A stretch of DNA of 64,000 nucleotides. It comes from an uncultured Prolixibacteraceae bacterium. GTDB lineage: Bacteria; Bacteroidota; Bacteroidia; Bacteroidales; FEN-979. A program made the translations under genes and the position numbers. Positions within the stretch are counted from its first letter, which is position 1. Each line of letters opens with the position of its first letter. Below the pieces are notes generated by a model. That model saw only the letters and a list, made by a program, of their open reading frames with translations. It ran no database searches and was not told the origin of the DNA. Shown piece after piece: positions 3,965 to 63,048 of the stretch. The stretch is from assembly GCA_964642545.1 (NCBI GenBank), contig CAZXQU010000001.1, positions 37,171 through 101,170 of the forward strand, read 5' to 3'.

Positions 3965-6900
3965 TCATTCTTCCCCCATCTCGAACTTCCTGATAAAGTC
4001 ACGTTTCTTATGGTCGGTAGAGAGGGTATAGCTGTAGCCACGCCATGCCTTGTTTAGTCGTTTTTTTTCTTTCTTATTCAGCAGTGCCTCCTTGATTTTA
4101 TCATTCGAGTCAAAATCGGAAGAGATAAATCTCATCACATTATTTCGATAGTTGAAGAAGTACCAATCATTTGCAGATATCTCGAGATAGATCGTAAATT
4201 CATCTCCATTCCGCTTTCTGGTGAATTCGATCTTTCCATTGAGATAACGGTTTACCATGCCATCCAGAATAGAGCCAATACCAATGGCACCATCTGATAC
4301 AAACGAACGTGTCAATGTATCAAAGCTCATCTTCACATCGGCAATAATCATTGTCTTTGTCAGCTCCTCCGGGAATTTCCGGAACCTCCCTACAGTCTCG
4401 AGTTCTGATTTCAGTTTCTCTCTCTCTTTGTCTGGTATCAATTCATTAAAAACAAAATTAAATGGAGATTTGAACAGTTGGATCCCCGGAAGGTTAGTAG
4501 ATGTCATCTGTGTCCTGATATGCTCTGCAACTCTCTCCTCAAATGGAAAATCAAGGATCAAAGAAAGCCGGAGGGAGGCAGAATCCGGAAGAACATAATA
4601 ATCCATTGTTCCATAGCTCTCCATCTGCAACGGGCCCGAATTAAACCCAAGGTTGATCTTCCCCTCCGCACGCATCATGCAATTGTATGTATTAAGGGAT
4701 ACCTTTGCCCCTGCTGAAGCCAGATTACCATTGGTATCAGGCATTCCAGCCTGGAATGTAGAGATTGGAATCTGGTATTGCAAGATCCCTGAAGTGGAGA
4801 TCATAATCGTATCGCTGAAACTCCTCCGCGGAGTAAAAAATGCAGGATAGATAATGTTTTCTGCATTTGAATAGACCATGCCCAGCACCACCTTCTCAGA
4901 GTTCCTGTTCTGGATAGGGTCTGAGACCGGTAATTTTATATAGTCTGGATTGACCCTGGAAGAGAATTTCACCCAGTTGGTTCCCAGGTTATAACACTCA
5001 ACCGTTGGTTTGAAAGCGCCTGAAAAGGTCATAGCTTTGACAGGTGCGTCAAGTCTAATATTCCCTATAAAAGCGAATTCCGGACTAAGCATGAAGTCGG
5101 CGGATTCAGAGATTGTTCCCGTTCCCACAGTATTTCCTGAAGTATCAACAGAGATTTTATCGAAGAATATCTCCTGATGGCTTCCAGTCCTGTCAATGTA
5201 ATCGTAGATTCCCGATCCGCTGTATCGCTTTCTCCCAAGTATGTTTACTGAAGCATCGTAGAAACTATGTTCCCTTGATCTTGTATTCGCAATGATATTG
5301 GCATTTGTGAGCTGACTTATCTCAGCATTCTTCAGAATTTCAACTTTCCCGCTGTCGGGGTAAATTGCTGCATCCGCAACCTTTATGATCTTTACCTCTT
5401 CGGCATTGATGATATTCGTTCTGATATTGTAACGCGCCCTGAGAGCAAAGAACCGCAGGGAATCCTGTTTTGGATGAACCGACATGAATTCGGTTCCAGT
5501 ATAGCCCACATCGATCAGCTGCGCGAGGCTAAGGTTATCCGGAATCGCGTATCGTTGGTTCTCCTCGTTTGTCAAAACGATCTCTTCATTATCAATCATC
5601 CAGTCGAAACGGTCCATCGAACAGATATACTTGTTGATTGGGAACTCCATCTTGGAGATTCCGAGATTGGATCGGAACTCACCTCTTCGCTCTTCAAAAT
5701 CGAAATGAGCACGATAATTCTGTGTCGAAATCGCCAGTGTATTAAGATCATACGATTTTATCCTGAAGTCGGCAATCAGCGCATCAAAGGTATGTTGCTG
5801 AAAACTGAATCCCTTTGAATCCATCTCGGCATCTTCGATTTTCATCGTTCCCGAACCGCTTAGTCCGCCAGGAGTAAAGCCAAGGGTTCCATCAAAAAGC
5901 GATTGGTTGTTATACATTGCCATATCCCTGACAGTGGAGGTGATACTCATGGAGTCCTGGTAAGGCAGCCAGAACTCCTTCACGCTGTCGGCGTTTACCG
6001 ATGGGTACTCAACAGCTGCAATCTGTTCTGTAGCCTGGAACCCACGGGCAAGAGTTTGCATACTGTCTGGGAAAAAGAGGAAGTGATCAGATACTGAAGT
6101 GGAATTAAGGTAATAAAGCTGCCCATCAGCCTGCAAACCCTGGTTGCTGAGATCGACTTTTGAAACAAATGTACCTTTTCCTCCGTAGGCCGGATATCCG
6201 TTGGCATCTGTATATTTTTCAAAGCCGAGGGAGAAGTCTGGTCGAACTTTAAGTGGTTCAGGGATGTCAGGGAAGATTCCAGCGGAGATTAATTGTCCAT
6301 CAAACTTCAGGCTGTCGGTATCGATGTAATCCAGACTTTTCAAAATAAAGGGGAATACCTCAAAATAGAATCGTTCTTTATCATACACTCCGTTGTAAAT
6401 ATATGGCTTTCCCCAGTTGACTGTTGCTGTATCCTGATTTGTGAATATCGGGTATTCAGGAGAATGTTTTATTCCTGCTTTGTTCTCTGGATCATCAATC
6501 AAAAGGAATCCGCTCAGGTCGTTGAGAGCAGTCTGTACTTTCTTCATAGGAAAGCGCCCTGTCTTGGGATCAATCTTTTTACTGATTACATAGAATTCCA
6601 GGGTATCGACTTCAGGCAAATTAAGTCTGAATTTGTCGTAATCAAACGAGCAACTGTCGGCATAGAAATCAAAAAGACCAGCTTCAACCTTACCGGTAAA
6701 TTGAAAGTTGCGATTCTCCTTAAGGATCAGCTCCTGGTTTCGGGGCGCAACGTAAACATGCTGAGAGTCTGAAAGGAAGACACCAGGGATTCCCTGGATT
6801 TTCAAATCAAAGTTTTCGAGATTCAGTGTAGCGTTGCTCTTTCCTTCAACCTCCGACGTAAATACGATCTCGTCGTAGTCGGTCTTCTCATTTTTTGCAT

Positions 6901-8461: not shown

Positions 8462-9318
8462 CCATTGAATTTTGCAACCATCCAGTTGTTCTTAACCCGG
8501 GTTCCGGAGATTCTAAGTCCGTGCTTTCCTGCATAGGCTTCAACCGTAGGCAGATCTTCTGTATAAAACCCGCTTAGAAACAGCCCCCCCCCCTTTTTTA
8601 ATGCAGTTGCATAGGACGGAATCTGCTCGATCAAGGTATTTCGGTTGATATTTGCTAGTATCACGTCAAATTGTTCGAGTGGAATATCCGAAGCGTCTCC
8701 CCGAATAACGTCAATAGTACTTGTATTATTCTTTATCACATTCTCCAAGGCATTCTCAACAGCCCATTTATCATAATCGATCGCAACTACCCGGCCGGCC
8801 CCCATTTTGGAGGCCAGGATTGCCAGTACTCCGGTGCCGCAGCCCATATCAAGAACTGTTTTACCGATCACAACTTCATCCAGGAGGGATTCAATCATCA
8901 GGGAGGTCGTTTCATGATGGGCCGTGCCGAAAGACATCTTTGGTTCAATAACAATGTCAATTATGGATGCTGGATGCCGGATGCCGGATGCCGGATGAAA
9001 TGGAGCGCGGATATAGCATCTTCCAGCGACCAGAACCGGTTCATAAGAGCTTTCCCAGATCGCGTTCCAATTTTCTTCCGGCATCCTTGTAACACTCCAG
9101 AAAAGATCTTTCAGATTAGGATATTTATTCAGGACCTGATGAATTTCGCCTTCGTTAAAATCCATTTCCTTGATGTAGGCAAACAGTACTGTATCTTCTT
9201 CATTGAAACTATCAAATCCCACCTCCGACAGTTCAGCTATCAGAATGTCTGAATAGCCCTGAACAACAGGCTGAAATGCTATTTCAAGAAAAAGTGAGGA
9301 GGGTTGATGGCTGCCCAT
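8458..9318 (-). CDS. prmA: ribosomal protein L11 methyltransferase
   Basis: It has the SAM-binding motif DMGCGTGVLAI, preceded by PKMSFGTAHHETT, and a PrmA-like N-terminal domain. It contains an in-frame heptamer array (8965-8999). Confidence 0.9.
   Translation of the reverse strand: MGSHQPSSLFLEIAFQPVVQGYSDILIAELSEVGFDSFNEEDTVLFAYIKEMDFNEGEIHQVLNKYPNLKDLFWSVTRMPEENWNAIWESSYEPVLVAGRCYIRAPFHPASGIRHPASIIDIVIEPKMSFGTAHHETTSLMIESLLDEVVIGKTVLDMGCGTGVLAILASKMGAGRVVAIDYDKWAVENALENVIKNNTSTIDVIRGDASDIPLEQFDVILANINRNTLIEQIPSYATALKKGGGLFLSGFYTEDLPTVEAYAGKHGLRISGTRVKNNWMVAKFNG
8584..8599. repeat. homopolymer tract C10 T6 (G10 on the coding strand) inside prmA
   Basis: The plus strand reads cagCCCCCCCCCCTTTTTTaa. 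The coding strand reads tta aaa aag ggg ggg ggg ctg (LKKGGGL). Confidence 0.9.
8965..8999. repeat. heptamer array (GGATGCY) x5 inside prmA
   Basis: The units are ggatgct ggatgcc ggatgcc ggatgcc ggatgaa. On the coding strand they read in all three frames as HPASGIRHPAS. Confidence 0.95.
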
Positions 9319-12150: not shown

Positions 12151-12153
12151 ATA

Positions 12154-12195
12154 GGTTAATAGATACTGGATAATGGATACTAGATACCAGCATCT
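12154..12195. repeat. degenerate heptamer array (RGATACT-like) x6 filling the permease/DoxX spacer
   Basis: The units are ggttaat agatact ggataat ggatact agatacc agcatct. The DoxX-gene stop (cta at 12194-12196) straddles the last unit. Confidence 0.8.
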
Positions 12196-15624: not shown

Positions 15625-15652
15625 CAGGCATCAGGCATGTGACATCCGGCAT
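15625..15652. repeat. heptamer array (CAGGCAT-like) x4 between convergent cdaA and the TPR lipoprotein gene
   Basis: The units are caggcat caggcat gtgacat ccggcat. The array abuts the lipoprotein stop codon (cta at 15653-15655). Confidence 0.85.
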
Positions 15653-16174
15653 CTATTTTATCTCGCTTTGTTGAGCTTCAAACTCCTGGATCATCTGTTC
15701 AGGAGTTTTTCCCAGATTTCTTATTGATGCCTGGGCATCATCCACAAAGTCGTGATCGGGATAGGTATCGATAAAGAGCTGGTATGTCTCTCTGGCTTTG
15801 TCAATATCACCCATTACATTTTCCTGTACATATCCGGTAAAGAAAAGGCACAGAGGAGCTTTTTCAAAATCGGGATAGGATTCCCGGATTTGTTCAAAAA
15901 GAGCAATGGATCCCGGCCCATTTTGCAGGTTCATTGTCATGGAGGCTGCTTTGAAGAGATATACCGGTGAGAGTGAATCATCGGGATAGGTCCCAGCAAA
16001 ATCCCTGTACATCTGAATAAGGGAATCAGCTCCCACACGGGAGAAGCCACTTTCGGTGGTAAACATCCGATCCTCCATCGAGGAAATCTGATCTTCTGTC
16101 TGCGTTTTGGAGGGACCACAAGCGGAAATTAATCCGGTAAGAGCAAAAAGAATTATATACGATACCTTTTTCAT
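15653..16174 (-). CDS. TPR-like lipoprotein (YbgF-like fold)
   Basis: It has a lipoprotein signal (LTGLISAC) and TPR-like helical repeats (YPDDSLSPVYLFKAA..., YPDFEKAPLCLFFTGY..., YPDHDFVDDAQ). Confidence 0.6.
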   Translation of the reverse strand: MKKVSYIILFALTGLISACGPSKTQTEDQISSMEDRMFTTESGFSRVGADSLIQMYRDFAGTYPDDSLSPVYLFKAASMTMNLQNGPGSIALFEQIRESYPDFEKAPLCLFFTGYVQENVMGDIDKARETYQLFIDTYPDHDFVDDAQASIRNLGKTPEQMIQEFEAQQSEIK

Positions 16175-16200
16175 AGAGCTGTTATATTATATTGTCATCA

Positions 16201-16264
16201 TTTCCTAATTTTCTAATTTCCTATTTTCCTAATTTCCTAATTTCCTAATTTCCTAATTTCGTAT
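16201..16264. repeat. octamer array (TTTCCTAA) x8 between def and the TPR lipoprotein gene
   Basis: The units are tttcctaa ttttctaa tttcctat, then tttcctaa x4, then tttcgtat, in unbroken 8-nt phase. The last unit runs into the def stop codon (16264-16266). Confidence 0.95.
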
Positions 16265-16839: not shown

Positions 16840-16867
16840 GGTTTCGTATTTCGTATTTCGTATTTCG
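16840..16867. repeat. heptamer array (TATTTCG) x4 filling the ruvX-def spacer
   Basis: The units are ggtttcg tatttcg tatttcg tatttcg. The whole 30-nt spacer between the def ATG (16839) and the ruvX stop (16870) is repeat. Confidence 0.95.
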
Positions 16868-16869
16868 TG

Positions 16870-18180: not shown

Positions 18181-19151
18181 AAAAAATCTTGGTCATTCAA
18201 ACAGCCTCCATCGGAGATGTGATCCTGGCTACAGCTCTTCTGGAGAAGCTGCATCATTTCTATCCGGATGCCCGCATCGATTTCCTGGTAAAAAAAGACA
18301 TGCAATCCCTCTTCAACGGGCATCCATTTATTAACCGGTTGCTCATCTGGGATAAATCAGTAAAATATCGCAGTTTCTTCCGATTAATCAAGGACGTTCG
18401 ATCGGAACGATACGACTTTGCAATCAACATTCAGCGCTTCGCTTTAACCGGTATCCTGACTGCTCTTTCAGGTGCAAAAGCCACTATCGGATTCGATAAA
18501 AACCCCCTCTCATGGGCCTTCAGCAATAGGATACCGCATAAAGTTGGCAATGGGATTCATGAAACCCAACGCAATCAGAGGCTGATCGCTGAGATAACGG
18601 ATGAGAATGTGGAGAAGCCAAAGTTATATCCTGAGAAGATCCAGCATCCAGTATCAGGTATCTATTATACAATTTCCCCTGCATCCCTCTGGTTCACAAA
18701 ACAATATCCTGCCGAACGCTGGGCCGAACTGATCGGGCAGATGTCTGAGGAGGCAATGGTCTACTTGTTGGGATCGAAGGCAGATTTTGAACTCTGTGAA
18801 GAGATACGGGATACGGGATATGGGATACGCGGATCGCGAATCGTGAATCTCGCCGGCCAGCTTTCCCTCCTAGAATCAGCAGCCCTGATGCAGGGTGCGA
18901 GGATGAACTTTACCAACGATTCAGCACCAATGCATCTGGCTTCTGCTGTCAATGCCCCGGTTTCGGCAGTCTATTGTTCCACCACACCTGATTTTGGGTT
19001 TGGCCCCCTCTCCGATAATCGCGCGATTGTTGAGGTTCAGACGGAATTATCCTGCCGACCCTGTGGTTTACATGGTCGAACAAGTTGTCCGGAGGGCCAT
19101 TTCAGATGCGCTGTTGATATAAATATGGAAACCCTAAGATCCCGCCTTTGA
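18177..19151 (+). CDS. glycosyltransferase family 9 (heptosyltransferase-like)
   Basis: It has the N-terminus MKKILVIQTASIGDVILATALLEKL and the motif NDSAPMHLASA. Its ATG overlaps the dapD stop (ATGA). It contains an in-frame heptamer array (18801-18849). Confidence 0.8.
   Translation: MKKILVIQTASIGDVILATALLEKLHHFYPDARIDFLVKKDMQSLFNGHPFINRLLIWDKSVKYRSFFRLIKDVRSERYDFAINIQRFALTGILTALSGAKATIGFDKNPLSWAFSNRIPHKVGNGIHETQRNQRLIAEITDENVEKPKLYPEKIQHPVSGIYYTISPASLWFTKQYPAERWAELIGQMSEEAMVYLLGSKADFELCEEIRDTGYGIRGSRIVNLAGQLSLLESAALMQGARMNFTNDSAPMHLASAVNAPVSAVYCSTTPDFGFGPLSDNRAIVEVQTELSCRPCGLHGRTSCPEGHFRCAVDINMETLRSRL
18801..18849. repeat. morphing heptamer array x7 inside the GT9 gene
   Basis: The units are gagatac gggatac gggatat gggatac gcggatc gcgaatc gtgaatc. 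They encode EIRDTGYGIRGSRIVN in frame. Confidence 0.9.
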
Positions 19152-19200
19152 CAAACCGGGAAATTTATCAACATCGCATGCATGTATCCATAATGTTTCA

Positions 19201-19208
19201 TATATTTG
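19201..19208 (+). promoter_or_regulatory. -7 box for tsaC
   Basis: TATATTTG lies 21 nt upstream of the ATG at 19230. Confidence 0.5.
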
Positions 19209-19229
19209 TAAAAAAGTTCGGGAATTAAG

Positions 19230-22235: not shown

Positions 22236-23081
22236 ATGAAACGACTTATAATCTATTTACTGCTCCTTGTCATTGTCGCAGCAGCCTGTACTGAACGGAT
22301 TGAGTTGAATCTGGATGAGACCTATACACGATTGGTGGTTGATGGTGACATATCGAATGATACGGGCAGCTACCAGGTTACCCTGAGCAAAACAGCCGAC
22401 TATTTCTACAACGAACCAGCTCCACGTGTTGTCAATGCTACCGTCAGTTTGAACAATGACTCAGATTCCTATCTCCTTCACGAAACTGAGCCAGGAATAT
22501 CCGGGATCTATGAGACCGATTCATCGTTTTATGGGATCATTGGAGAGACATATACCCTCGACATCGATCTGGATCAACCAATCGATAATGAGACCAATTA
22601 CACATCCTCGTGCAAGATGATGAATGTGGCCCGCCTTGATTCCATCCAGGTAGTATTTCAGACAGATTGGGGCCCTAAAGGCATCTGGGAGATCAGAGTT
22701 TTTGCCCAGGAACCCGGAGATGAAGTCAATTATTACATGTTCCGATACTACCGGAACGACACACTGATGAGCGATTCGATCTGGAAAGTAGAAATATCTG
22801 ATGATAAGTATATCAACGGCGGCTACATCAATGGACTTACAGCGATCTATATCAATAACGAAAATCCATGGGAGACATTTAAACCAGGCGATAAAGTAAC
22901 TCTCCAAATGTCGGGAATCACCAAAGAGTATTACGATTTTATTTACCAGGTGAAACTCTCGGGATTCAACATCCCTTTCTTTACCGGCCCTCCAGCCAAC
23001 GTTCAGGGCAATATAAGCAATGGGGGGATTGGGTTCTTCTCAGCTTATTCCAATACGTGGGGGAGTACGATTGTGAAATAG
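22236..23081 (+). CDS. DUF4249-like lipoprotein (TonB-dependent receptor partner)
   Basis: It has a lipoprotein signal (VAAAC) and lies 13 nt downstream of the TonB-dependent receptor. The family assignment is from the remembered TBDR+DUF4249 pairing and is not verified. Confidence 0.6.
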   Translation: MKRLIIYLLLLVIVAAACTERIELNLDETYTRLVVDGDISNDTGSYQVTLSKTADYFYNEPAPRVVNATVSLNNDSDSYLLHETEPGISGIYETDSSFYGIIGETYTLDIDLDQPIDNETNYTSSCKMMNVARLDSIQVVFQTDWGPKGIWEIRVFAQEPGDEVNYYMFRYYRNDTLMSDSIWKVEISDDKYINGGYINGLTAIYINNENPWETFKPGDKVTLQMSGITKEYYDFIYQVKLSGFNIPFFTGPPANVQGNISNGGIGFFSAYSNTWGSTIVK

Positions 23082-23112
23082 CGAAATAGCGAAATAGCGA
23101 AATAGCGAAAAT
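23073..23112. repeat. octamer array (GCGAAATA) x5 after the DUF4249 gene
   Basis: The units are gtgaaata, gcgaaata x3, gcgaaaat. The TAG stop codon (23079-23081) is formed across the unit 1/2 junction. Confidence 0.95.
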
Positions 23113-24497: not shown

Positions 24498-24519
24498 CAA
24501 ATATCCAATATACTTCCAA

Positions 24520-24556
24520 CCTACAGCCTAAAAGCCTAACAGCCTACAGCCTAATC
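24520..24556. repeat. 7/8-nt array (CCTACAG / CCTAACAG) x5 abutting the GT2 start codon
   Basis: The units are cctacag cctaaaag cctaacag cctacag cctaatc, followed immediately by the ATG at 24557. Confidence 0.9.
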
Positions 24557-25432: not shown

Positions 25433-25452
25433 ATCGTCATCACTTTTTTTTG

Positions 25453-25460
25453 TACTTTTG
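25453..25460 (+). promoter_or_regulatory. -7 box for the DUF5606-like gene
   Basis: TACTTTTG lies 15 nt upstream of the ATG at 25476. Confidence 0.5.
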
Positions 25461-25475
25461 TAAAAAATCACTGCT

Positions 25476-25928: not shown

Positions 25929-25933
25929 TTGAC

Positions 25934-25941
25934 TATCTTTG
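25934..25941 (+). promoter_or_regulatory. -7 box for the PEGA-like gene
   Basis: TATCTTTG lies 41 nt upstream of the ATG at 25983. Confidence 0.45.
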
Positions 25942-25982
25942 AATGTTTAATCAAGTAAAACAAAATCATTAAATTAATAAAT

Positions 25983-27458: not shown

Positions 27459-27465
27459 TATAAAA

Positions 27466-27528
27466 CTGAAATACGAAAGATGAAATACGTATTTCCTAAT
27501 TTCCTAATTTCCTAATGACCAATGACCA
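27466..27528. repeat. composite repeat in the pyrK-pyrD spacer: TGAAATACG x2 (15 nt apart), ATTTCCTA x3, ATGACCA x2
   Basis: tgaaatacg occurs at 27466 and 27481. atttccta occurs three times at 27491-27514. atgacca occurs twice at 27515-27528. The second ATGACCA carries the pyrD start codon (27522). Confidence 0.9.
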
Positions 27529-28436
27529 ACCTTCAAGTAAATATCGCCGGACTCACCTTCAAAAATCCCGTTACCACGGCATCTGGCACATTCGGGTATG
27601 GAGATGAGTTCAGAGACTTCATGGATCTTGGTAAGATCGGAGGTATCTTTGTCAAAGCGGTAACTGGCTCCAACAGGGAGGGAAACGCCTATCCCCGTAT
27701 GGCTGAAACTCCGTCGGGGATGTTAAATTCGGTGGGTCTGCAAAACAAAGGCGTTGACCATTTCGTCAGAGAGATCTATCCCCGGATCAAAGATTTTGAC
27801 ACCCATATCATTGTCAATGTTTCAGGCTCCACACTAGAAGAATATGTGGAGGTAGCCGCCCGGATGAATGAACTGGAGAATGTATCTGCCATTGAGCTGA
27901 ACATTTCCTGCCCCAATGTCAAACAGGGCGGGATGGCTTTTGGAACCGTGCCGTCCATGTCGTCGGAAGTGACCCGGGCTGTGAGGGATGTCTACAAGGG
28001 GGTGCTGATGGTCAAACTTTCACCCAATGTCACCAGTATTATCGAAATCGCAAAGGCGGTGGCCGACGGTGGCGCAGATGTGTTGACACTCGTAAATACA
28101 CTCTTGGGAATGGCTATTGATGCCGATCGTCGTCGCCCTATCCTCTCCACTATTACAGGAGGACTCTCTGGTCCGGCCATCAAGCCTGTTGCCTTACGGA
28201 TGGTATGGCAGGTCCACAATGCTGTAAACCTGCCCGTAATTGGTCTTGGCGGTATCATGAACGCTACCGATGCCATTGAATTCATGCTAGCCGGCGCTTC
28301 TGCCATCCAGGTTGGAACTGCCAACTTCATCGATCCGGCAGTCTCCGTCAAAATTGTGGAAGGCATTGAAGCTTATATGCTGAAACACTGTATTACCGAC
28401 GTAAATGAGCTGATCGGTGGATTGCGGACTGATTAA
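27522..28436 (+). CDS. pyrD: dihydroorotate dehydrogenase 1B, catalytic subunit
   Basis: Motifs [14 protein letters not shown] (catalytic Cys loop), [10 protein letters not shown] and GLGGI are present. Confidence 0.92.
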
Positions 28437-31056: not shown

Positions 31057-31057
31057 T

Positions 31058-31108
31058 CTGTAGAGACGGAGCATGCCTGTAGAGACGAGGCATGCCTCGT
31101 CTCTACAG
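31058..31108. terminator. perfect 32-nt palindrome preceded by a 19-nt direct copy of its left arm, between the convergent T9SS-cargo gene and murB
   Basis: 31077-31108 is CTGTAGAGACGAGG-CATG-CCTCGTCTCTACAG, a 14-bp perfect stem with a 4-nt loop. 31058-31076, CTGTAGAGACGGAGCATGC, repeats 31077-31095 with 17 of 19 matches. There is no flanking U-tract. The right arm contains the murB Leu-stop (CTGTAG on the minus strand). Confidence 0.6.
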
Positions 31109-32131: not shown

Positions 32132-32175
32132 TAAAAATAATTAACTTGCGTCTCCGTTGGACTATAAACCATCTT

Positions 32176-33306
32176 ATGCCGGTCAAGTGTGCCATCGTAT
32201 GCGTTACCAATGACCTCACCACCGATCAACGGGTGGACCGCACATGCATAACCCTTATGGAACTAGGCTATTCCGTGATTTTGATAGGCCGGAAACTGAA
32301 TAAAAGCCTTCCACTGATACCCCGTTTGTATGAGATGCACCGGATGCCGTTATGGTTTAACAAAGGCCCGTTTTTCTATGCTAACTACAATATTCGCCTG
32401 TTTTTATATCTAATTACCCATAAATTCAGCCTTATCGTCTCCAACGACCTTGATACCCTTCCTGCCAGTTTTCTGGCATATAAAATAAAAACCAGGGGGG
32501 TGACACTCCTCCACGACTGTCACGAATACTTTCGCGGGGTGCCGGAACTGGTTGGGCGGAAAGGGACCACACGTGTTTGGAAATGGATCGAAGACAGAAT
32601 ATTTCCACGTCTGGAACTGATAACTGCAGTCAATGGATCCGTTGCAAAACTCTACAAGGAAGAGTATGGCAATGAGATTGTCGTGATCAGGAACGTCCCG
32701 TTCCGCAAGCATGGCGGAGAAGCTATCTCCAAAGAATCACTGGGGATATCTCCACATCAGAAGGTGATTCTCTATCAGGGAGCTGTAAACCTGGACAGAG
32801 GACTTGAAGAGATTATCCAGGCAATGAAATATATACGATGTGATGCAAAGTTGGTGATTGTAGGAACGGGTGATAAGTTTGATGAACTTCAGGCATTTGT
32901 GAAACAGGAGAAGGTACCGGGCAAAGTAATCTTCACCGGGCCAATTCCATTCCAGGATCTTTATCGCTATACGCTTATGGCAGATATCGGATTATCGGTT
33001 GAGAAGGACGTAAGCCTAAACTACCATTTTGCATTACCAAACAAGTTCCTGGATTATATTCAGGCCAATGTCCCCCTTCTGATCTCACCATTCCCTGAAA
33101 TGAAAGCAATCCTCGATAAATATTTTATCGGGGAGGTGCTGGAGAGCCATGACCCGATACATATCGCAGAGAAGATTGACGGGATGCTATTGAATGAAAC
33201 CCGGCTGGCGCTTTTTCGCGAGAACCTTCTTTCGGCTGCAGAAGAACTTTGCTGGGAGAATGAGGAGCCAAAGTTGAAGAAGATGCTGGAAGAGAATGAG
33301 GAATGA
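32176..33306 (+). CDS. glycosyltransferase (GT-B fold, GT4-like)
   Basis: The C-terminal half has the GT-B pattern (ILYQGAVNLDRGLEE...LVIVGTGD...). The start is trimmed to ATG 32176. The stop codon lies inside a heptamer array. Confidence 0.7.
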   Translation: MPVKCAIVCVTNDLTTDQRVDRTCITLMELGYSVILIGRKLNKSLPLIPRLYEMHRMPLWFNKGPFFYANYNIRLFLYLITHKFSLIVSNDLDTLPASFLAYKIKTRGVTLLHDCHEYFRGVPELVGRKGTTRVWKWIEDRIFPRLELITAVNGSVAKLYKEEYGNEIVVIRNVPFRKHGGEAISKESLGISPHQKVILYQGAVNLDRGLEEIIQAMKYIRCDAKLVIVGTGDKFDELQAFVKQEKVPGKVIFTGPIPFQDLYRYTLMADIGLSVEKDVSLNYHFALPNKFLDYIQANVPLLISPFPEMKAILDKYFIGEVLESHDPIHIAEKIDGMLLNETRLALFRENLLSAAEELCWENEEPKLKKMLEENEE

Positions 33307-33384
33307 ATTACGAATTACGAATTATGAATTATGAATTGAATATCAATGAATTGAAACCCGAAACCCGAAACCCGAAACTTGAAA
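33294..33384. repeat. heptamer-derived arrays spanning the whole GT4/GT spacer
   Basis: The units are gaatgag gaatgaa ttacgaa ttacgaa ttatgaa ttatgaa, then a degenerate bridge (ttgaatatcaatgaattgaaa), then cccgaaa x3 and cttgaaa. The upstream TGA (33304-33306) and the candidate TTG start (33379) both lie in units. Confidence 0.92.
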
Positions 33385-34530
33385 CTAACACTTCACATCA
33401 TAAGCTTTGACGTCCCGTTTCCTCCCAATTACGGGGGGGTGATCGATATCTATTACAAGATTCGGGCGCTCCATGAAGCCGGGGTAAATGTAATCCTGCA
33501 CTGTTTCCAGGATCAAAGGGATCCAAATCCTGAACTTAAGAAACTATGTACCGAGGTATGTTACTATCCGCGTCAAAAGAGCATCCTGAATCTCATGTCC
33601 CTGCGACCTTACATCGTTGCCAGCCGGAATTCAGAATCCCTGCGAAAGCGGCTATTGCAGGACGAGTATCCAATCCTGTTTGAAGGACTGCATACCTGCA
33701 ATATCCTGAATGATCGAGCTTTTCGGGACCGTAAAAAGATTTACAGGGAGAGTAACATTGAACACGACTATTATTATCACCTCTATAAGGCGACAGGAAA
33801 TATCCTTGACAAAGTGTTTTTCCTGGCCGAGAGCATGAAATTGCGCTGGTTCCAAAGGATCCTTAAACATGCTGACCTGATGCTGGCAGTCTCAAAAGCA
33901 GACGAACAGTACCTGAAATTCAAGTTTCCACAAAAGGATATCCGGTATTTGCCATCATTTCACCTGGATGACAAAATAAGTTCAAAACCTGGCCGGAGTT
34001 CCTACCTGCTTTACCAGGGCAAATTAAGTGTTCCGGAAAATATTCGTGCCGCAGAATATATCATCAATCATATCTACACTGACTCTCTTCCTGATCTGAT
34101 TATCGCCGGGATGAATCCTCCTGGGCATCTCATTAAACTAATTGAAAAGCATCCCAACATTCGACTGGAGATCAACCCCGATGACGACAGAATGTTTGAA
34201 CTCATTCGGGATGCACAGATCAACCTCCTGGTGACATCGCAACCAACCGGATTGAAGCTGAAACTATTAAATGCGCTGTTTCATGGCCGGCACTGCCTGG
34301 TGAATCCCGAAATGCTTGTGGGGACAGGGTTGAATGATGTTTGCACAACAGCAAAAACGCCTCAACAATTCCGTGACGAGATTGGCACCCTTTTCTTGAA
34401 AGATTTCGACGCTGGGATGATAGCCCACCGTGAGGCTATAATCATGGAAAAATACTCCAATAAAAAAAATTGTATAAGCCTAACGGATATATTAACTTTG
34501 TTCTATGAAAAAAATACTCGTTCCGGTTGA
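33379..34530 (+). CDS. glycosyltransferase (GT-B fold, GT4-like)
   Basis: The N-terminus HIISFDVPFPPNYGGVIDIYYKIRAL and a C-terminal GT-B half are present. The TTG start at 33379 is taken from the ORF track and lies in the last repeat unit, so the start is uncertain. Confidence 0.6.
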   Translation: MKLTLHIISFDVPFPPNYGGVIDIYYKIRALHEAGVNVILHCFQDQRDPNPELKKLCTEVCYYPRQKSILNLMSLRPYIVASRNSESLRKRLLQDEYPILFEGLHTCNILNDRAFRDRKKIYRESNIEHDYYYHLYKATGNILDKVFFLAESMKLRWFQRILKHADLMLAVSKADEQYLKFKFPQKDIRYLPSFHLDDKISSKPGRSSYLLYQGKLSVPENIRAAEYIINHIYTDSLPDLIIAGMNPPGHLIKLIEKHPNIRLEINPDDDRMFELIRDAQINLLVTSQPTGLKLKLLNALFHGRHCLVNPEMLVGTGLNDVCTTAKTPQQFRDEIGTLFLKDFDAGMIAHREAIIMEKYSNKKNCISLTDILTLFYEKNTRSG

Positions 34531-38402: not shown

Positions 38403-38406
38403 GGTA

Positions 38407-38414
38407 CAAAAATA
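38407..38414 (-). promoter_or_regulatory. -7 box for guaA (leaderless geometry)
   Basis: The minus strand reads TATTTTTG and ends 4 nt upstream of the ATG at 38402. Confidence 0.4.
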
Positions 38415-38424
38415 AGAAAATATT

Positions 38425-40185
38425 TTACCTGATCAGGGTCGCATTGTATTCAGTGCGGTTTCCAACACCGTCAGTAATGATCAGCTGGAATTTGTTCGTA
38501 CCGGCTTTGATCCGGCTATCGTATTTGTACTCCAGCCTGTTCTGTTTGGCATCATAATCCATTAAAATCCAACTCCCGTTCAATGTCCCACGGTAACTTT
38601 TGATTCCGGAGAAATCATCTGAGATTGTGAGTACGATTGTACTCTGCTTGCTGATGTTCTTGTTGTTATAAATATTGACTGCCTTGATTTTAGGTGGCAT
38701 TGAATCTACGCTGATAGTGTAAGCTCCAAACTCGCGTATCTTTCCAGTCACATAGCCATCGTTGAATTTCCCTCCCTGACTGACAAATTTTCCACTTTTT
38801 TCAACCTTTGCAAGAAGTGCTCTTGATTCAAGCCATCTTGGAAGAGTTTCGGCTCTGATTGAAAGGGTGCAGCGAAGATGCATCGGAGTCTCTTCATCCT
38901 GCAAATAATGAACACGGGAGTAACTTCCGTTTATTGGAGGCTTTGTAGTGTATTGAAAATCCAGATCTTCATAGAGGGTATTTTCAGGCATCATAAAGTT
39001 AAGGTAGGTATTTTCAAATTCGTTTTCCTGATCCCAGGCGAAACTATTCGAAGGCGTAGTTGTTTCAGTTGGCCCTACACCAGAAGAGGTGGGCGGATGA
39101 CTTTTCACCCAAAATGTAATCTGAGATGTATTGCCATAAGAATCTTTAACAACATATTGAATTTTGTGCGCCTTCAGGTCAGTAAAATTAACAATGCCCC
39201 GGTTGACTACTCCATCGAAAATTTCCAGATTGTTTCCGGGAGCGATATATGACCTGAAAAATCGCTGTTTGTTCTTAATGTTCTGGGGATAGTCAAGGAT
39301 CGCATTAACATACCGGGTATCAGCAAAGGCATACCTGTCAATACGCTGGCCGAATACCTTCTCTCCATCAACCTTCAACTCGATCGATTTAATTCCGCAA
39401 CGAATGGATGATGTATTTTGAAAATCGTATGCTTCTATCCCAAAGATGATATCACCTGAAACCATGACTGTATCGGACGAAACGACTCCATATTTCCCAT
39501 TACCTCCGGCAGCCTGCAGTGCTTTCGGATTGGAAGTATAGTTTACCATTGCAGTTTGGCCATAAGGGTAGATTTTTACCCATTTGATCTGGGGTTGAAG
39601 GTTGTCCTGAATTCGGATTCCAAAAGAGAGGGGATCCAAAGGATCCTGACTTCGGCCATCTCTTATCTCAAAATGAAGATGAGGGCCTCCTGATGAGCCT
39701 GAATTTCCTGAATACCCGATCACGTCACCTTTCCGCACCTGAATTTTGCCGGACGGAACAGTGACATCAATCGAAAATGACTCCTTTGCATACTGTTGCT
39801 CATATGCATAAGCAGCTATCTCTCCGCGAAAACGATCCAGATGCCCGTACACCGTTGTGTAACCGGAAGGATGACTGATATAAATTGCTTTCCCAAAGCC
39901 CCAGGGGGAGACGAAGATCCTGGAAACGTATCCATCTGCAGCAGAATAAACTGGCTTGCCTGTCACCCCGGCAGTACGAATATCGATTCCCGAATGAAAA
40001 TGATTTGGTCTAATCTCACCATAAGATCCTGATAGTGAAAGAGTAAAATCGACGGGGGACCGGAACAGGGTTTGAGAATAGTTGGTCTGAGAGCTGCCGG
40101 TGAGAGTGACTAATAACAACAGGAGAGTGAGGGAAACACCAACTGCCAACTGCCTACTGCCTACTGCCAACTGCCTACTGCCCAT
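38425..40185 (-). CDS. M23 family metallopeptidase (LytM-like)
   Basis: The zinc motifs HFHSGIDI (HxxxD) and GPHLHFE (HxH) are present. The N-terminus [16 protein letters not shown] is encoded by six heptamer repeats ahead of the signal-peptide core. The true start may be an in-frame TTG inside the array. Confidence 0.85.
40141..40182. repeat. heptamer array (WACTGCC) x6 at the 5' end of the M23 gene
   Basis: The units are aactgcc aactgcc tactgcc tactgcc aactgcc tactgcc. The minus strand encodes [14 protein letters not shown] directly after the ATG at 40185. The HAD stop codon (40175-40177) is inside the array. Confidence 0.95.
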
Positions 40186-52158: not shown

Positions 52159-52207
52159 GGTGATAGGCGTGATGAAATCGTAATTCATAATTCGTAATTC
52201 GTAATTG
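52159..52207. repeat. morphing heptamer array x7 (core CGTAATT x4 at 52179-52206) upstream of miaA
   Basis: The units are ggtgata ggcgtga tgaaatc gtaattc ataattc gtaattc gtaattg, in constant 7-nt phase. The array ends 5 nt before the miaA ATG at 52213. Confidence 0.85.
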
Positions 52208-52212
52208 ATAAA

Positions 52213-57782: not shown

Positions 57783-57803
57783 CAGAAAAACCGAAAGCTG
57801 GAT

Positions 57804-57859
57804 CCCAGATCCCAGATCCCAGATCCCAAATCTCTAATCCCTAATCCCTAATCCCTGAT
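57804..57859. repeat. morphing heptamer array x8 (CCCAGAT to CCCTAAT) in the OsmC leader
   Basis: The units are cccagat x3, cccaaat, ctctaat, ccctaat x2, ccctgat. The array lies between the -7 box (57775-57782) and the ATG at 57865. Confidence 0.95.
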
Positions 57860-58260: not shown

Positions 58261-58288
58261 GGCACAGGGCACAAGGCACAGGGCACAG
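58261..58288. repeat. heptamer array (GGCACAG) x4 starting immediately after the OsmC stop codon
   Basis: The units are ggcacag ggcacaa ggcacag ggcacag. The array is the left flank of the PLP-enzyme remnant. Confidence 0.92.
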
Positions 58289-58413
58289 GAGAATGCCATG
58301 AAAGTTGCCGAATACCTAGAAGCACATCCCAAAGTAGCATGGGTTAAGTACCCCGGGCATAACGTGGGATTCTGTGTTTTGGCTGTATCCCTTGGGGGAA
58401 TAGAGACCCTGAT
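58289..58413 (+). pseudogene. remnant of a Cys/Met-metabolism PLP enzyme (cystathionine gamma-synthase / methionine gamma-lyase / OAH sulfhydrylase family)
   Basis: The translation ENAMKVAEYLEAHPKVAWVKYPG...FCVLAVSLGGIETLIQYPAS matches two conserved C-terminal blocks of the family (..NA.KVAEFL..HP.V..V.YPGL and F..A.SLGG.ESLI.HPASMTH). About 40 aa between the blocks are missing, as are the whole N-terminal ~300 aa and the last ~40 aa. The remnant is flanked by heptamer arrays on both sides. Confidence 0.6.
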
Positions 58414-58448
58414 CCAGTATCCAGCATCCAGCATCTGGCATCCAGCAT
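58414..58448. repeat. heptamer array (CCAGCAT) x5, right flank of the PLP-enzyme remnant
   Basis: The units are ccagtat ccagcat ccagcat ctggcat ccagcat. They read as YPASSIWHPAS in the remnant frame. Confidence 0.92.
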
Positions 58449-58495
58449 CAAAAATATCGCGTATATTTGTCCGTTTGATACGTAAACTGATTCGG

Positions 58496-60796
58496 ATGAT
58501 CCGCCAGCTGAAGATACTTATATCCTTTCTGGTCATATTAATCACACTGTTTCCTTCTCCTGGTTTCTCCCAGAAGGTAGCCCTTGTGCTTTCGGGAGGC
58601 GGAGCACGCGGGGCAGCCCATATCGGGGTAATCAGGGCACTCGAAGAGAACCAGATTCCGATCAACTATATAGTTGGTACTTCTATAGGTGCCATCGTTG
58701 GAGCTCTGTACGCCATTGGTTACACTCCTGATGAGATCGAGCAACTGATGAGCTCTCCTGAATTTTCCAATTGGGCATCCGGCTCAATTGACGAAAAGTA
58801 CCGTTATTATTTCAGGAAAGATGATCCTACTCCCTCCTGGGTATCCCTTGATTTCAATCCCAAAAAGAAATTAAGTACAGTTATTCCAACCAACCTGATC
58901 AATCCATATGAGATTGATTTTGAGTTCATGCGCCTGCTGGGACCTGCAGCAGCGGCAGCCTGTTATAATTTCGATAACCTGATGGTCCCATTCCGGTGTG
59001 TTTTATCAGATATTGATTCCACACAACCATTGGTAATGAGAGGGGGGAATCTCAGTACAGCAGTTCGGGGATCCATGTCTATTCCTTTGATTTACAATCC
59101 TTTACGATATAATGATAAATTACTTTTCGATGGTGGCATGTACAACAATTTCCCGGCAAATGTTGCACAGGAGGACTTTCATCCGGATGTTATCATTGGA
59201 TCAAGGGTGGCCCAGCGTTATAGCAAAGCTGACCCCGACGATGTGATCAGTCAGCTTATGATCATGTTGATGGAACGACAGAATGACACCATTACCTACC
59301 CAAACTCAGTGATGATCGTGCCTTCAATTCCCAAAATCAACCTGCTTGATTTTTCACAGACTGAAATTTTGGCTGATAGTGGCTATTTGGCGGCTATCTC
59401 AATGATCCCTGAGATTCGAAAGCTGGTAGCAGACACCATTACTCCCGAAGTTCTCCTCAGGAAGAGGACTATCTTCAAGGCCAAAGAACCTGAGATGTTA
59501 TTTGATTCTATCGTTGTAACAGGACTCACAAAAGCGCAGGCTCAGTATGTCCAAAAAATATTGAAGCACAACCAAAAGACTGTTACCATCAATGAATTAA
59601 AAAAGGCCTATTTCAGATTCATTGATGAAGGTTTTGTCAAGACGATTTTCCCTACTACAAGGTACAACCCACAAACTGGATATTATGACCTTTACCTGGA
59701 TATTCAAAAAGCTCCAGGTTTCAACGTGCAATTTGGCGGAAACCTCTCCCTGGGGACCAGCAATGAAGGATTTCTTCAGCTTCGGTACAAATATCTTTGG
59801 AACCATGCGATCAGGGTTCTGGCGAACGGATATTTTGGCAGATTCTATAGTTCTGCTAAGGTTGGCGGGCGGATTGACTTCACATCAAAACTACCCTGGT
59901 ATCTGGAACTTTACTACACATATAACAATTACAACTATTTCAATAATACGACCTATTTCTTTGATGACCTGACACCCTCAAATATCAAGCAATGGGAGAG
60001 TTTTACTTCCCTAAAAGGGGGTATCCCTATTACGAACAAAGGGAAACTTACCCTGGGATTAATCAATGCGATTACCTCTTCTGATTATTACCAAACCAAT
60101 GATTTTTCGCGACTCGATACAGCTGATCAAACCAAATTTAATTACTTCACTCCCAGGATCTGTTTTGAGCTGAATAGTCTGAATCGAAAACAATACGCCA
60201 ATGCCGGAGCCCGTCTTAGCATTTCACTGACATATGTGAACGGGAGGGAGATTCTCATTCCCGGGTCCCAGTCAGCCAACAAATCAGAACAAACCGTGTA
60301 TCATGAATGGCTTGAGATCAAAGGAATTTACGATAATTATTTTGAAACCATAGGTCCGCTCAAACTTGGCTTTTTTGGAGAAGTTTGCATAACCAACCAG
60401 CCATTTTTCTTAAACTACACATCCTCTATTATGTATTCACCAGCATTCCAACCGCTTCCGGAAATGCAGTCTTTATTCCTGCCTCAATTCAGGGCCTCTA
60501 GTTACCTGGCAGGTGGATTGAAAGCCATTTTAACAATCTATAAAAAGCTGGAAATCAGAGCCGAAGGTTATATATTTCAACCATATCAACAAATCCTGCA
60601 AAGCCCCATTGATTATACCGCGTACCATGGGCCAATCCTGAGTGACCGATCATACATTGCAGCAGCAACGCTCGTTTACCACACGTTTCTTGGGCCATTG
60701 AGTGCCGGCTTTAGTTTCTATGACAAATTACAAGATCCCTTTACCTTCAATCTCAATTTCGGGTATATCATCTTTAATCGTAGTGCCTTACCATAA
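58496..60796 (+). CDS. patatin-like phospholipase fused to an Omp85/BamA-like beta-barrel (PlpD-like)
   Basis: The signal peptide starts at ATG 58496 (MIRQLKILISFLVILITLF). Patatin motifs are present: GGGARG, GTSIG (GxSxG) and FDGG (catalytic Asp). The C-terminal ~450 aa are aromatic-rich and barrel-like. The ORF-track start at 58298 would fuse the pseudogene remnant onto it. Confidence 0.82.
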   Translation: MIRQLKILISFLVILITLFPSPGFSQKVALVLSGGGARGAAHIGVIRALEENQIPINYIVGTSIGAIVGALYAIGYTPDEIEQLMSSPEFSNWASGSIDEKYRYYFRKDDPTPSWVSLDFNPKKKLSTVIPTNLINPYEIDFEFMRLLGPAAAAACYNFDNLMVPFRCVLSDIDSTQPLVMRGGNLSTAVRGSMSIPLIYNPLRYNDKLLFDGGMYNNFPANVAQEDFHPDVIIGSRVAQRYSKADPDDVISQLMIMLMERQNDTITYPNSVMIVPSIPKINLLDFSQTEILADSGYLAAISMIPEIRKLVADTITPEVLLRKRTIFKAKEPEMLFDSIVVTGLTKAQAQYVQKILKHNQKTVTINELKKAYFRFIDEGFVKTIFPTTRYNPQTGYYDLYLDIQKAPGFNVQFGGNLSLGTSNEGFLQLRYKYLWNHAIRVLANGYFGRFYSSAKVGGRIDFTSKLPWYLELYYTYNNYNYFNNTTYFFDDLTPSNIKQWESFTSLKGGIPITNKGKLTLGLINAITSSDYYQTNDFSRLDTADQTKFNYFTPRICFELNSLNRKQYANAGARLSISLTYVNGREILIPGSQSANKSEQTVYHEWLEIKGIYDNYFETIGPLKLGFFGEVCITNQPFFLNYTSSIMYSPAFQPLPEMQSLFLPQFRASSYLAGGLKAILTIYKKLEIRAEGYIFQPYQQILQSPIDYTAYHGPILSDRSYIAAATLVYHTFLGPLSAGFSFYDKLQDPFTFNLNFGYIIFNRSALP

Positions 60797-60828
60797 TCAC
60801 CGTTATATTGCGGTATCAGAATAAATAC

Positions 60829-60836
60829 TATTTTTG
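60829..60836 (+). promoter_or_regulatory. -7 box for the DUF349 gene
   Basis: TATTTTTG lies 71 nt upstream of the ATG at 60908. Confidence 0.45.
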
Positions 60837-60907
60837 CAATTGAAAACACGACTTACCGGCATCGTTCGGAACCTTCAGAGTATTATTTATATGACGTTTG
60901 TTAACTC

Positions 60908-62983: not shown

Positions 62984-62985
62984 AG

Positions 62986-63048
62986 GACGTGAGACGTGGG
63001 ACGTGAGACGTGGGAAGTGAGACGTGAGACGTAAATCGTAAATCGAAC
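62986..63048. repeat. morphing heptamer array x9 (GACGTGR to ATCGTAA) after the DUF349 gene
   Basis: The units are gacgtga gacgtgg gacgtga gacgtgg gaagtga gacgtga gacgtaa atcgtaa atcgaac. The array starts 3 nt after the TAA at 62981-62983. Confidence 0.95.

Follow-up and report, generated by a model that had tools for sequence, protein, structure and literature searches.

In this study, we found that a 72-nt spacer between two glycosyltransferase genes of an uncultured Prolixibacteraceae bacterium (contig CAZXQU010000001.1) is probably a compound heptanucleotide microsatellite, that is, a long simple sequence repeat (LSSR). We read it as one instance of the accumulation of 7- and 8-nt arrays at gene boundaries in this lineage. 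The two genes are designated GT1 and GT2, and the spacer lies between the GT1 stop at 33306 and the GT2 start at 33379 of a 64,000-nt stretch of DNA. The whole stretch is called the window, and L-numbers denote related Bacteroidales loci that were compared with it.

An earlier note, made from the letters of the window alone, had described region 33294-33384 as a continuous block of heptamer-derived sequence. Its letters and coordinates were borne out exactly by the sequence (Table 1), and both the TGA stop and the TTG start do lie inside repeat units. Tandem Repeats Finder (TRF) detected two arrays in the spacer. Array B has an exact core at 33353-33378 (period 7, 3.7 copies, 100% matches) and extends across the TTG start to codon 3 of GT2. 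With 4.7 and 3.7 head-to-tail copies, both arrays belong to the heptanucleotide LSSRs, which are defined by at least 3 copies of a 5-11-nt unit. The TRF arrays covered 82% of the spacer. The statement that no non-repetitive nucleotide separates the genes was overstated, since 33338-33350 lies outside the tandem arrays and, within it, TATCA (33341-33345) is free of repeats of any kind. A repeat search placed the direct repeat ATGAATTGAA at 33331-33340 and 33346-33355, where it flanks and overlaps this bridge core. The stop-bearing pair GAATGAG/GAATGAA is just a two-copy imperfect doublet within the last codons of GT1.

We then compared the junction across relatives. The GT1 stop and the GT2 start were located in 75 Bacteroidales loci with the gene pair, and a spacer was called array-filled when at least 30% of it was covered by 7/8-nt arrays. 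The two genes overlapped or lay within 10 nt of each other in 60/75 loci, and 44 of those 60 had an exact 8-nt overlap, in almost every case with ATG as the start codon. Spacers of 11-40 nt were found in 4/75 loci and spacers of more than 40 nt in 11/75. All 11 junctions with these long spacers use a TTG start, and ATG accompanies the 8-nt overlap. Eight of the 11 (the window, L001, L005, L006, L008, L012, L013 and L016) consist of 7/8-nt arrays to 33-95%. The comparison of spacer lengths that the earlier note had asked for thus showed that overlap is the rule and long array-filled spacers are the exception. These results support the proposal that the spacer was generated by array growth, and demonstrate that only array-prone genomes have a heptamer-filled spacer between the two genes.

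The units at the two ends of the spacer recurred in other species. Both the window and L006 have GAATGAN units at the GT1 stop, and the L008 spacer contains GAATGAC units. (C/T)TGAAAC units preceded the GT2 TTG in the window, L001, L003 and L006, with TTGAACC in L008. The middle of the spacer was wholly different between species. Within species, one and the same spacer was found in all 7 assemblies of the species of the window (L088-L094), which came from different samples and had at least 99.88% identity; L089 differed only at the end of its contig, which falls in a coding gene. The L001-type spacer was likewise identical in 3 assemblies (L001, L002, L095). A metagenome scan for both flanks with a 57-87-nt gap gave no match, and a scan for the 20-nt start region gave one contig only, identical to L001. 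At the junction of the HAD hydrolase and M23 peptidase genes, CAGT[AT]GG was present in 6.3 copies in the window; in L006 the units were GGCAGTR (12.6 copies) and CGGCATC (15.4 copies), and L001 and L005 had different ones. Copy number therefore differs between species at this junction, but the units have changed too. These results indicate that the arrays are stable within populations and turn over between species. The contigs of L091, L092 and L093, which are independent Logan assemblies, all stop exactly at window position 33308, where the TTACGAA array begins, so that short-read assembly graphs are apparently broken by the arrays.

The earlier note had taken the N-terminus of GT2 to be overwritten or generated by array growth, and its start to be uncertain. 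GT2 homologues number in the thousands, and the N-terminus was aligned with 26 of them (53-99% identity). All were collinear and started within 0-5 residues of the same position, with H6, F10, P13, P15, Y18, G19 and G20 invariant, which contradicts overwriting. Upstream, the GT2 frame is closed by a TGA at 33352-33354, which leaves TTG 33379 as the earliest possible start. If initiation took place instead at the next candidate in this frame, a GTG at codon 21, the invariant N-terminal residues would be lost. The other four clade species sampled (L001/L002/L095, L003/L004, L005 and L006/L007), whose GT2 at the syntenic loci is 73-85% identical, all start GT2 with TTG. Because of the collinear homologues, the first possible TTG and its use in four sister species, the start is not in doubt. 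As judged from the sequence, GT2 starts at TTG 33379 and both genes are intact. In L008, GT2 carries a short repeat-encoded N-terminal extension, MNLEPIT, derived from TTGAACC units.

The C-terminus of GT1 was also proposed to have been reshaped by arrays. GT1 may start at TTG 32146 or alternatively at an ATG at codon 11, position 32176, and its final codons, GAG AAT GAG GAA TGA, contain the GAATGAG/GAATGAA doublet. Its orthologues are 80-89% identical at syntenic loci. The conserved motif LCWENE[EA] is followed by 12 residues in the window and by 13 in the array-free L014, and the C-terminus of the window GT1 is thus neither shortened nor lengthened. In sister species, GT1 tails are encoded by repeats, namely ..IMDSGFGI in L005 from GGATTTG-type units, and ..PGYRIPEKNDE in L006 from units including GGATACC GGATCCC. 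The proposal therefore holds in kind, for sister species, but not for the window. A heptamer unit with a stop triplet shows a stop in all three frames within 21 nt, so that an open reading frame (ORF) entering such an array ends inside it, which explains the variable repeat-encoded tails. For annotation, stops and starts embedded in repeats are normal in this lineage and can be relied on wherever homologues bear them out. The C-terminal tails, N-terminal extensions and in-frame loop insertions that the repeats encode amount to lineage-specific noise and are not domains.

Two further features were observed in GT1. The last codons of GT1 (TGCTGGAAGAGAATGAGGA, ..MLEENEE) are similar to a conserved stretch that encodes CWENEE and lies 34-36 nt upstream (TGCTGGGAGAATGAGGA; window 33250-33302), which may reflect an old local duplication in the 3' end of the gene. 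The GT1 orthologues in L001 (~5020-5090), L005 (~5070-5110) and L006 (~4990-5065) carry a GC-rich palindrome inserted in frame (CTCCCCCTCTCC-TCAA-GGAGAGGGGG is one version), which encodes ..LLPLSxRRG.. and is absent from the window GT1 (32485-32505). Similar GC-rich hairpins are present in L003 upstream of GT2 and at the HAD/M23 junction. These palindromes look like a second family of small elements in these genomes, resembling repetitive extragenic palindromes or miniature inverted-repeat transposable elements (REP/MITE-like).

The spacer is not an isolated case. The window contains about 18 arrays, mostly at gene boundaries, and about 10 of them end within 10 nt of a start codon. Many of the short gaps between long ORFs consist of little else than such arrays (Table 1). 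TRF returned 47 rows for the window, chiefly with periods 7, 8, 14 and 21. Exact tandem repeats of at least 3 copies were found five times at k = 7 and three times at k = 8, and none at k = 4-6 or 9-15. In 30 first-order Markov simulations, no arrays of at least 3 copies appeared at any k from 6 to 15. Period specificity for 7 and 8 thus exceeds chance. Over-representation and period preference were tested on the 64-kb window only. In 1.39 Mb of related Bacteroidales loci, 94/129 period-7/8 arrays lay outside ORFs of at least 100 aa, although non-ORF DNA made up only 12.2% of the sequence; 24 of the 129 overlapped a stop codon and 8 a start. One array carrier among these loci is a cultured isolate, Parabacteroides sp. 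PF5-6 (L066). Units also recurred among arrays: 35 identical pairs (any rotation or strand, non-neighbouring) were found against 6.6 +/- 2.3 with letter-shuffled units, about a 5-fold excess. Arrays of the octamer TTCGCTAY, which is AGCGAAAT and GAAATAGC by rotation or strand, were found in five genomes. Part of the recurrence may be orthology.

We next examined whether the arrays coincide with promoters. Among the co-directional window spacers of at least 20 nt, 8/16 were array-made (coverage 0.49-0.97). The Bacteroidetes -7 promoter box TAnnTTTG was present in sense orientation in 0/8 array-made spacers versus 6/8 array-free spacers (Fisher's exact p ~0.007, hand calculation). Examples of spacers of unique sequence are 19152-19229, 25433-25475, 25929-25982 and 60797-60907, and of array spacers 16840-16869 and 23082-23111. 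Since array spacers lack the promoter box, the arrays occupy promoter-less, presumably operon-internal junctions. In the GT1-GT2 spacer itself, a sigma-70-like promoter and a terminator were looked for and none was found, and no TAnnTTTG box was present within 33100-33500.

RNA structure was also considered. An Rfam search of the spacer gave no credible match; the sole hit, at chance level, was TeloSII_ncR30, whose score of 15.9 bits (E = 0.49) is far below the gathering score of 86. The 141-nt spacer region folded less well than shuffled sequences (minimum free energy (MFE) z = +1.63), with 191/200 shuffles folding at least as well, and the segment from -50 to +20 had an MFE of -1.8 versus a shuffle mean of -1.6. 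With no credible Rfam match and z = +1.63, a structured regulatory RNA (riboswitch, attenuator or Rfam family) was rejected. Across the window, arrayed initiation regions had a mean MFE of -5.9 versus -8.6 kcal/mol in the others (p = 0.06), while z-scores against dinucleotide shuffles were 0.20 versus 0.11 (p = 0.43). Since folding was weaker but the shuffle z-scores were equal, the low structure mostly reflects composition, and RNA structure was rejected as the purpose of the arrays.

Under the microsatellite reading, the arrays would grow by replication slippage in 7-nt steps and would be seeded from the junction itself. The 5' GAATGAN units would be copies of the GAA-TGA stop region, and the 3' (C/T)TGAAAC units copies of the first seven bases of GT2, TTG-AAA-C. 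The stop and start would then look like repeat units because the neighbouring units are copies of the stop and start ends, and not the reverse. Indels of 7 nt should be tolerated only outside reading frames, or in frame-keeping multiples in loops and tails, so that arrays would accumulate in spacers. An mRNA that spans GT1-GT2(-Usp) probably includes the spacer. In general, Bacteroidota do not rely on Shine-Dalgarno pairing. A likely passive effect of the spacer would be that stop/start-overlap coupling is replaced by independent initiation at an accessible, A-rich TTG without a Shine-Dalgarno sequence. Coupling through such overlaps (ATGnnTGA, TGATG) is the arrangement of GT1-GT2 in the 60 relatives with tight junctions. 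In contrast, the window has the repeat spacer and a TTG, so any coupling there must work differently or has been lost. The spacer is thus probably a near-neutral, unstructured, promoter-less operon-internal leader.

Several observations weigh against this reading. The array-rich loci L062, L052 and L065 retain the 8-nt overlap, and array-free spacers of 21-103 nt occur in the TTG subclade (L009, L010, L011, L018, L087). The arrays may therefore have colonised and lengthened a pre-existing short gap rather than splitting the overlap directly. The identical spacers in 7 + 3 assemblies show that the indel rate is low on that time scale. Finally, the recurrence of units, together with the start-proximal GAAAC-NN in four species, could reflect selection or a sequence-specific process.

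This last point leads to the possibility that the arrays have a function in translation. Heptamers close to the start would serve ribosomes as a standby site or enhancer, or would form a binding platform for RNA-binding proteins (S1, Csp, CsrA-like), and would set GT2 expression without a Shine-Dalgarno sequence. The stretch GAAAC(C/T)TGAAAC-TTG is common to the window, L001, L003 and L006 while the remaining spacer turned over, and the proximity of many arrays to start codons, the excess of recurring unit families and the tendency of arrayed initiation regions to less structure point in the same direction. There is also a precedent in MacGregor's proposal for TAACTGA repeats (PMC4679880). However, dozens of unrelated units make a single binding specificity unlikely, and ATTTCCTA stands in sense orientation relative to the downstream gene at 27491 and in antisense at 16200. 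Arrays also lie between convergent genes (15625-15653), after stops far from starts (62985-63045) and in coding sequences (CDS), the folding z-scores do not differ, and constraint on the start codon and on the first codons after it could by itself account for the conserved units beside the start. We consider this explanation unlikely, but because of the unit recurrence and the shared GAAAC-NN units a functional or sequence-specific alternative keeps a small, appreciable share of the probability. It is rather doubtful that the arrays of several Bacteroidales lineages are actively generated or selected operon-internal leaders, in which limited unit families (GAAAC-NN near starts, TTCGCTAY, GGATNCC) are recognised by an RNA-binding or ribosomal component for internal initiation independent of Shine-Dalgarno pairing and replace overlap coupling, or that they are products of a sequence-specific DNA process with 7-8-nt steps.

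A simple repeat beside glycosyltransferase genes is a classic setting of a contingency locus, of which the Haemophilus tetranucleotide repeats and the Moraxella repeats in 5' untranslated regions are examples. Frequent gain and loss of 7-nt units would then switch or tune a surface-glycan glycosyltransferase by phase variation. The spacer resembles such loci in that a simple repeat lies between or within surface-glycan enzyme genes, and copy number does differ between species at the HAD/M23 junction. In contrast to such loci, no length polymorphism was present at the assembly level in 7 + 3 same-species assemblies, and the arrays are not confined to surface genes; similar ones precede the housekeeping genes for PyrD and adenylosuccinate lyase. 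Both facts argue against high-frequency phase variation. The array lies between a stop and a start, where it affects neither promoter spacing nor a reading frame, and a length change in a non-coding, promoter-less spacer has no obvious switch effect. We regard phase variation as very improbable. There is equally little to be said for the view of the earlier note that array growth overwrote the GT1 C-terminus and the GT2 N-terminus, leaving the annotated ends, especially the GT2 start, unreliable. The stop and start do lie in repeat units, and sister species have repeat-encoded GT1 tails and, in L008, the GT2 extension; but GT2 is collinear with its homologues from the first possible TTG, a start shared by the sister species, and the GT1 tail has the length of array-free orthologues. 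A 35-aa repeat-encoded ORF at 33303-33410 could bridge the genes, with its ATG overlapping the GT1 TGA (ATGA), and relay ribosomes to GT2. Gene callers annotated it in L090-L093, and in L001 and L006, as in the window, the GT1 stop is part of an ATGA. However, the frame of this ORF stops after 18 codons in L001 and 5 in L006, L005 has no ATG, and in the window the ORF terminates 30 nt past the GT2 start in another frame. This ORF was rejected because it is not conserved in L001, L005 and L006, and a ribosome relay is scarcely credible.

The microsatellite reading places the spacer within a known kind of repeat. According to the summary given in PMC4679880 of the work of Mrazek, Guo and Shah (2007), heptanucleotide LSSRs outnumber every other long-SSR class in most prokaryotic genomes and are attributed to polymerase slippage; the top carriers named in that summary are Burkholderia, Cyanobacteria, Actinobacteria and Xanthomonas. 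Like LSSRs, the window arrays consist of head-to-tail 5-11-nt units with period 7 predominant, are sporadic among lineages and mostly non-coding (7 is not a multiple of 3), and would likewise arise by slippage. Unlike LSSRs as summarised, they occur in an uncultured member of the Bacteroidales at about 18 arrays per 64 kb, show a second peak at 8 nt, and lie in promoter-less co-directional junctions, sometimes extending into gene ends or forming in-frame loops.

Direct repeats of TAACTGA have been described in marine Beggiatoaceae, some Cyanobacteria and five Bacteroidetes (MacGregor 2015, PMC4679880). They form heptamer arrays of 2-6 or more copies, for the most part intergenic, that lie a few nt upstream of starts without Shine-Dalgarno sequences; in some cases the array overlaps the 3' end of the preceding ORF. 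Strains differ by indels in 7-nt steps, and a part in translation was proposed for the repeats (PMC4679880). The window arrays resemble them as mostly intergenic heptamer arrays. The TAACTGA system has a single unit, with related heptamers rarely repeated, whereas the window has many unrelated units in inconsistent orientation. Many window arrays end 0-10 nt before a start, but ATTTCCTA occurs both sense and antisense and others adjoin stops only. TAACTGA itself formed 0 tandem doublets in the window and occurred as 2 singletons.

Tandem heptamers in intergenic DNA, genome-wide, are also known as the short tandemly repeated repetitive (STRR) sequences of cyanobacteria, reportedly described by Mazel et al. 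in 1990. They form three defined families in heterocystous cyanobacteria, with the units CCCCAGT, TTGGTCA and CAACAGT. The window arrays resemble them as tandem heptamers scattered through intergenic DNA. Only one 2-copy match to these units was found in the window, AATGACCAATGACCAA = (TGACCAA)x2 at 27514-27529, the reverse complement of the STRR2 unit TTGGTCA, and this doublet is probably a coincidence. Membership in the TAACTGA and STRR families was rejected since their units are absent as arrays in the window. In the literature, we found no description of this array habit in Bacteroidales. The spacer belongs to the known heptanucleotide-repeat kind, while the lineage and the local details are new: the many units, the 7-plus-8 periodicity, the density and the tie to promoter-less junctions. 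The same gene pair, overlapping in 60 relatives, with a spacer of unique sequence in a few and with heptamer arrays in eight, forms a clean natural series. This series is suited to asking how heptamer arrays affect translation in Bacteroidota that lack Shine-Dalgarno sequences, and why slippage prefers 7-8 nt. Both questions date from the first heptanucleotide repeats noticed in cyanobacteria and Beggiatoaceae.

Table 1. Genes, spacer segments and repeat arrays; coordinates refer to the window unless a locus is named.
Feature	Coordinates	Strand	Basis or remark
GT1, GT4-family glycosyltransferase, 386 aa from TTG 32146	32146..33306	+	Pfam Glycos_transf_1 6e-16, Glyco_transf_4
GT2, glycosyltransferase, 383 aa, TTG start	33379..34530	+	Glyco_transf_4 weak match; collinear N-terminus
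In-frame TGA closing GT2 frame upstream	33352..33354	+	sequence, ORF list
gaatgag, last codons of GT1	33294-33300	+	sequence
gaatgaa, holds TGA 33304-33306	33301-33307	+	sequence
GAATGAG GAATGAA doublet with GT1 TGA stop	33294..33307	+	sequence
ttacgaa x2	33308-33321	+	sequence
ttatgaa x2	33322-33335	+	sequence
21-nt bridge	33336-33356	+	sequence
cccgaaa x3	33357-33377	+	sequence
cttgaaa, holds TTG 33379-33381	33378-33384	+	sequence
Heptamer array A, GAATTAC x4.7 (in the register of the earlier note, TTACGAA x2, TTATGAA x2)	33305..33337	+	TRF period 7, 96% matches, score 52
Heptamer array B, GAAACCC x3 then GAAACTT GAAACTA	33351..33385	+	TRF period 14
Bridge core, outside any tandem array	33338..33350	+	without TRF coverage
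GGATGCC x4.7 (33 nt), in frame inside PrmA	8965..8997	-	encodes HPASGIRHPAS just before S-adenosylmethionine (SAM)-binding core
7/14-nt array	12157..12187	.	fills 43-nt spacer (12151-12193) between two minus-strand genes
Array between convergent genes	15625-15653
Octamer ATTTCCTA x7.6	16200..16260	.	in 89-nt co-directional spacer (16175-16263)
TTTCGTA x3.9	16842..16868	.	fills 30-nt stop-to-start spacer (16840-16869)
GATACGG + CGCGAAT arrays	18803..18849	+	in frame inside GT9 (heptosyltransferase-family) CDS
Octamer GAAATAGC x4.5	23075..23110	+	spacer 23082-23111
Octamer ACAGCCTA x4.1	24523..24554	+	ends 2 nt before ATG start; spacer 24498-24556
ATTTCCTA x3.2 then AATGACC x2.3 containing pyrD ATG	27491..27529	+	spacer 27459-27521
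CAGTAGG/CAGTTGG x6.3 (sense orientation)	40139..40182	-	HAD hydrolase/M23 peptidase junction
TAATTCG-type array	52178..52211	+	ends 1 nt before ATG start
GATCCCA x4.6 + ATCCCTA x4.9	57801..57856	+	ends 8 nt before ATG of OsmC-like gene
GGCACAG x4.1	58261..58289	+	begins directly after TAA stop; spacer 58261-58297
GGACGTG/AGACGTG x6.7 + CGTAAAT x2.3	62985..63045	+	begins directly after TAA stop
TTCGCTAY-family arrays	window 23075; L020 4749; L027 1827/8479/8574; L031 3562; L041 6183
Recurring GGATNCC-like heptamers	window 8965, 15625, 57801; L006 12796; L031 9167

Some of the other window arrays also contribute to genes. The GATACGG/CGCGAAT units encode a loop of the GT9 glycosyltransferase, EIRDTGYGIRGSRIV. 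The GAAATAGC array gives the DUF4249 gene its TAG stop and adjoins the TTG start of the adenylosuccinate lyase gene, which parallels the GT1-GT2 case. The CAGTAGG/CAGTTGG array holds both the TAG with which the HAD hydrolase gene ends and candidate ATG/TTG starts for the M23 peptidase gene. The array between pyrK and pyrD is kept in L001, and the window and L001 differ there by point changes only.

Three observations were made elsewhere in the window. ORF 58298..60796 opens with 20 codons that show a weak match (26.5 bits, cutoff 27) to the C-terminal part of a pyridoxal phosphate (PLP) enzyme of Cys/Met metabolism and lie between the heptamer arrays 58261-58289 and 58412-58449 (region 58298-58449). 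This stretch is probably a gene relic, with the true start of the patatin-like protein downstream of the second array. At 31057-31102, in the convergent gap between murB and a gene for a protein with a type IX secretion system (T9SS) tail, a GC-rich hairpin (CTGTAGAGACG..CGTCTCTACAG) is enlarged by a 19-nt tandem duplication; it is shorter in L001 and L005. At guaA (38403-38424, minus strand), a conserved TAnnTTTG box ends 4 nt before the ATG (TATTTTTGTACCATG; TACATTTG in L005 and L006), which suggests that the guaA mRNA is nearly leaderless.

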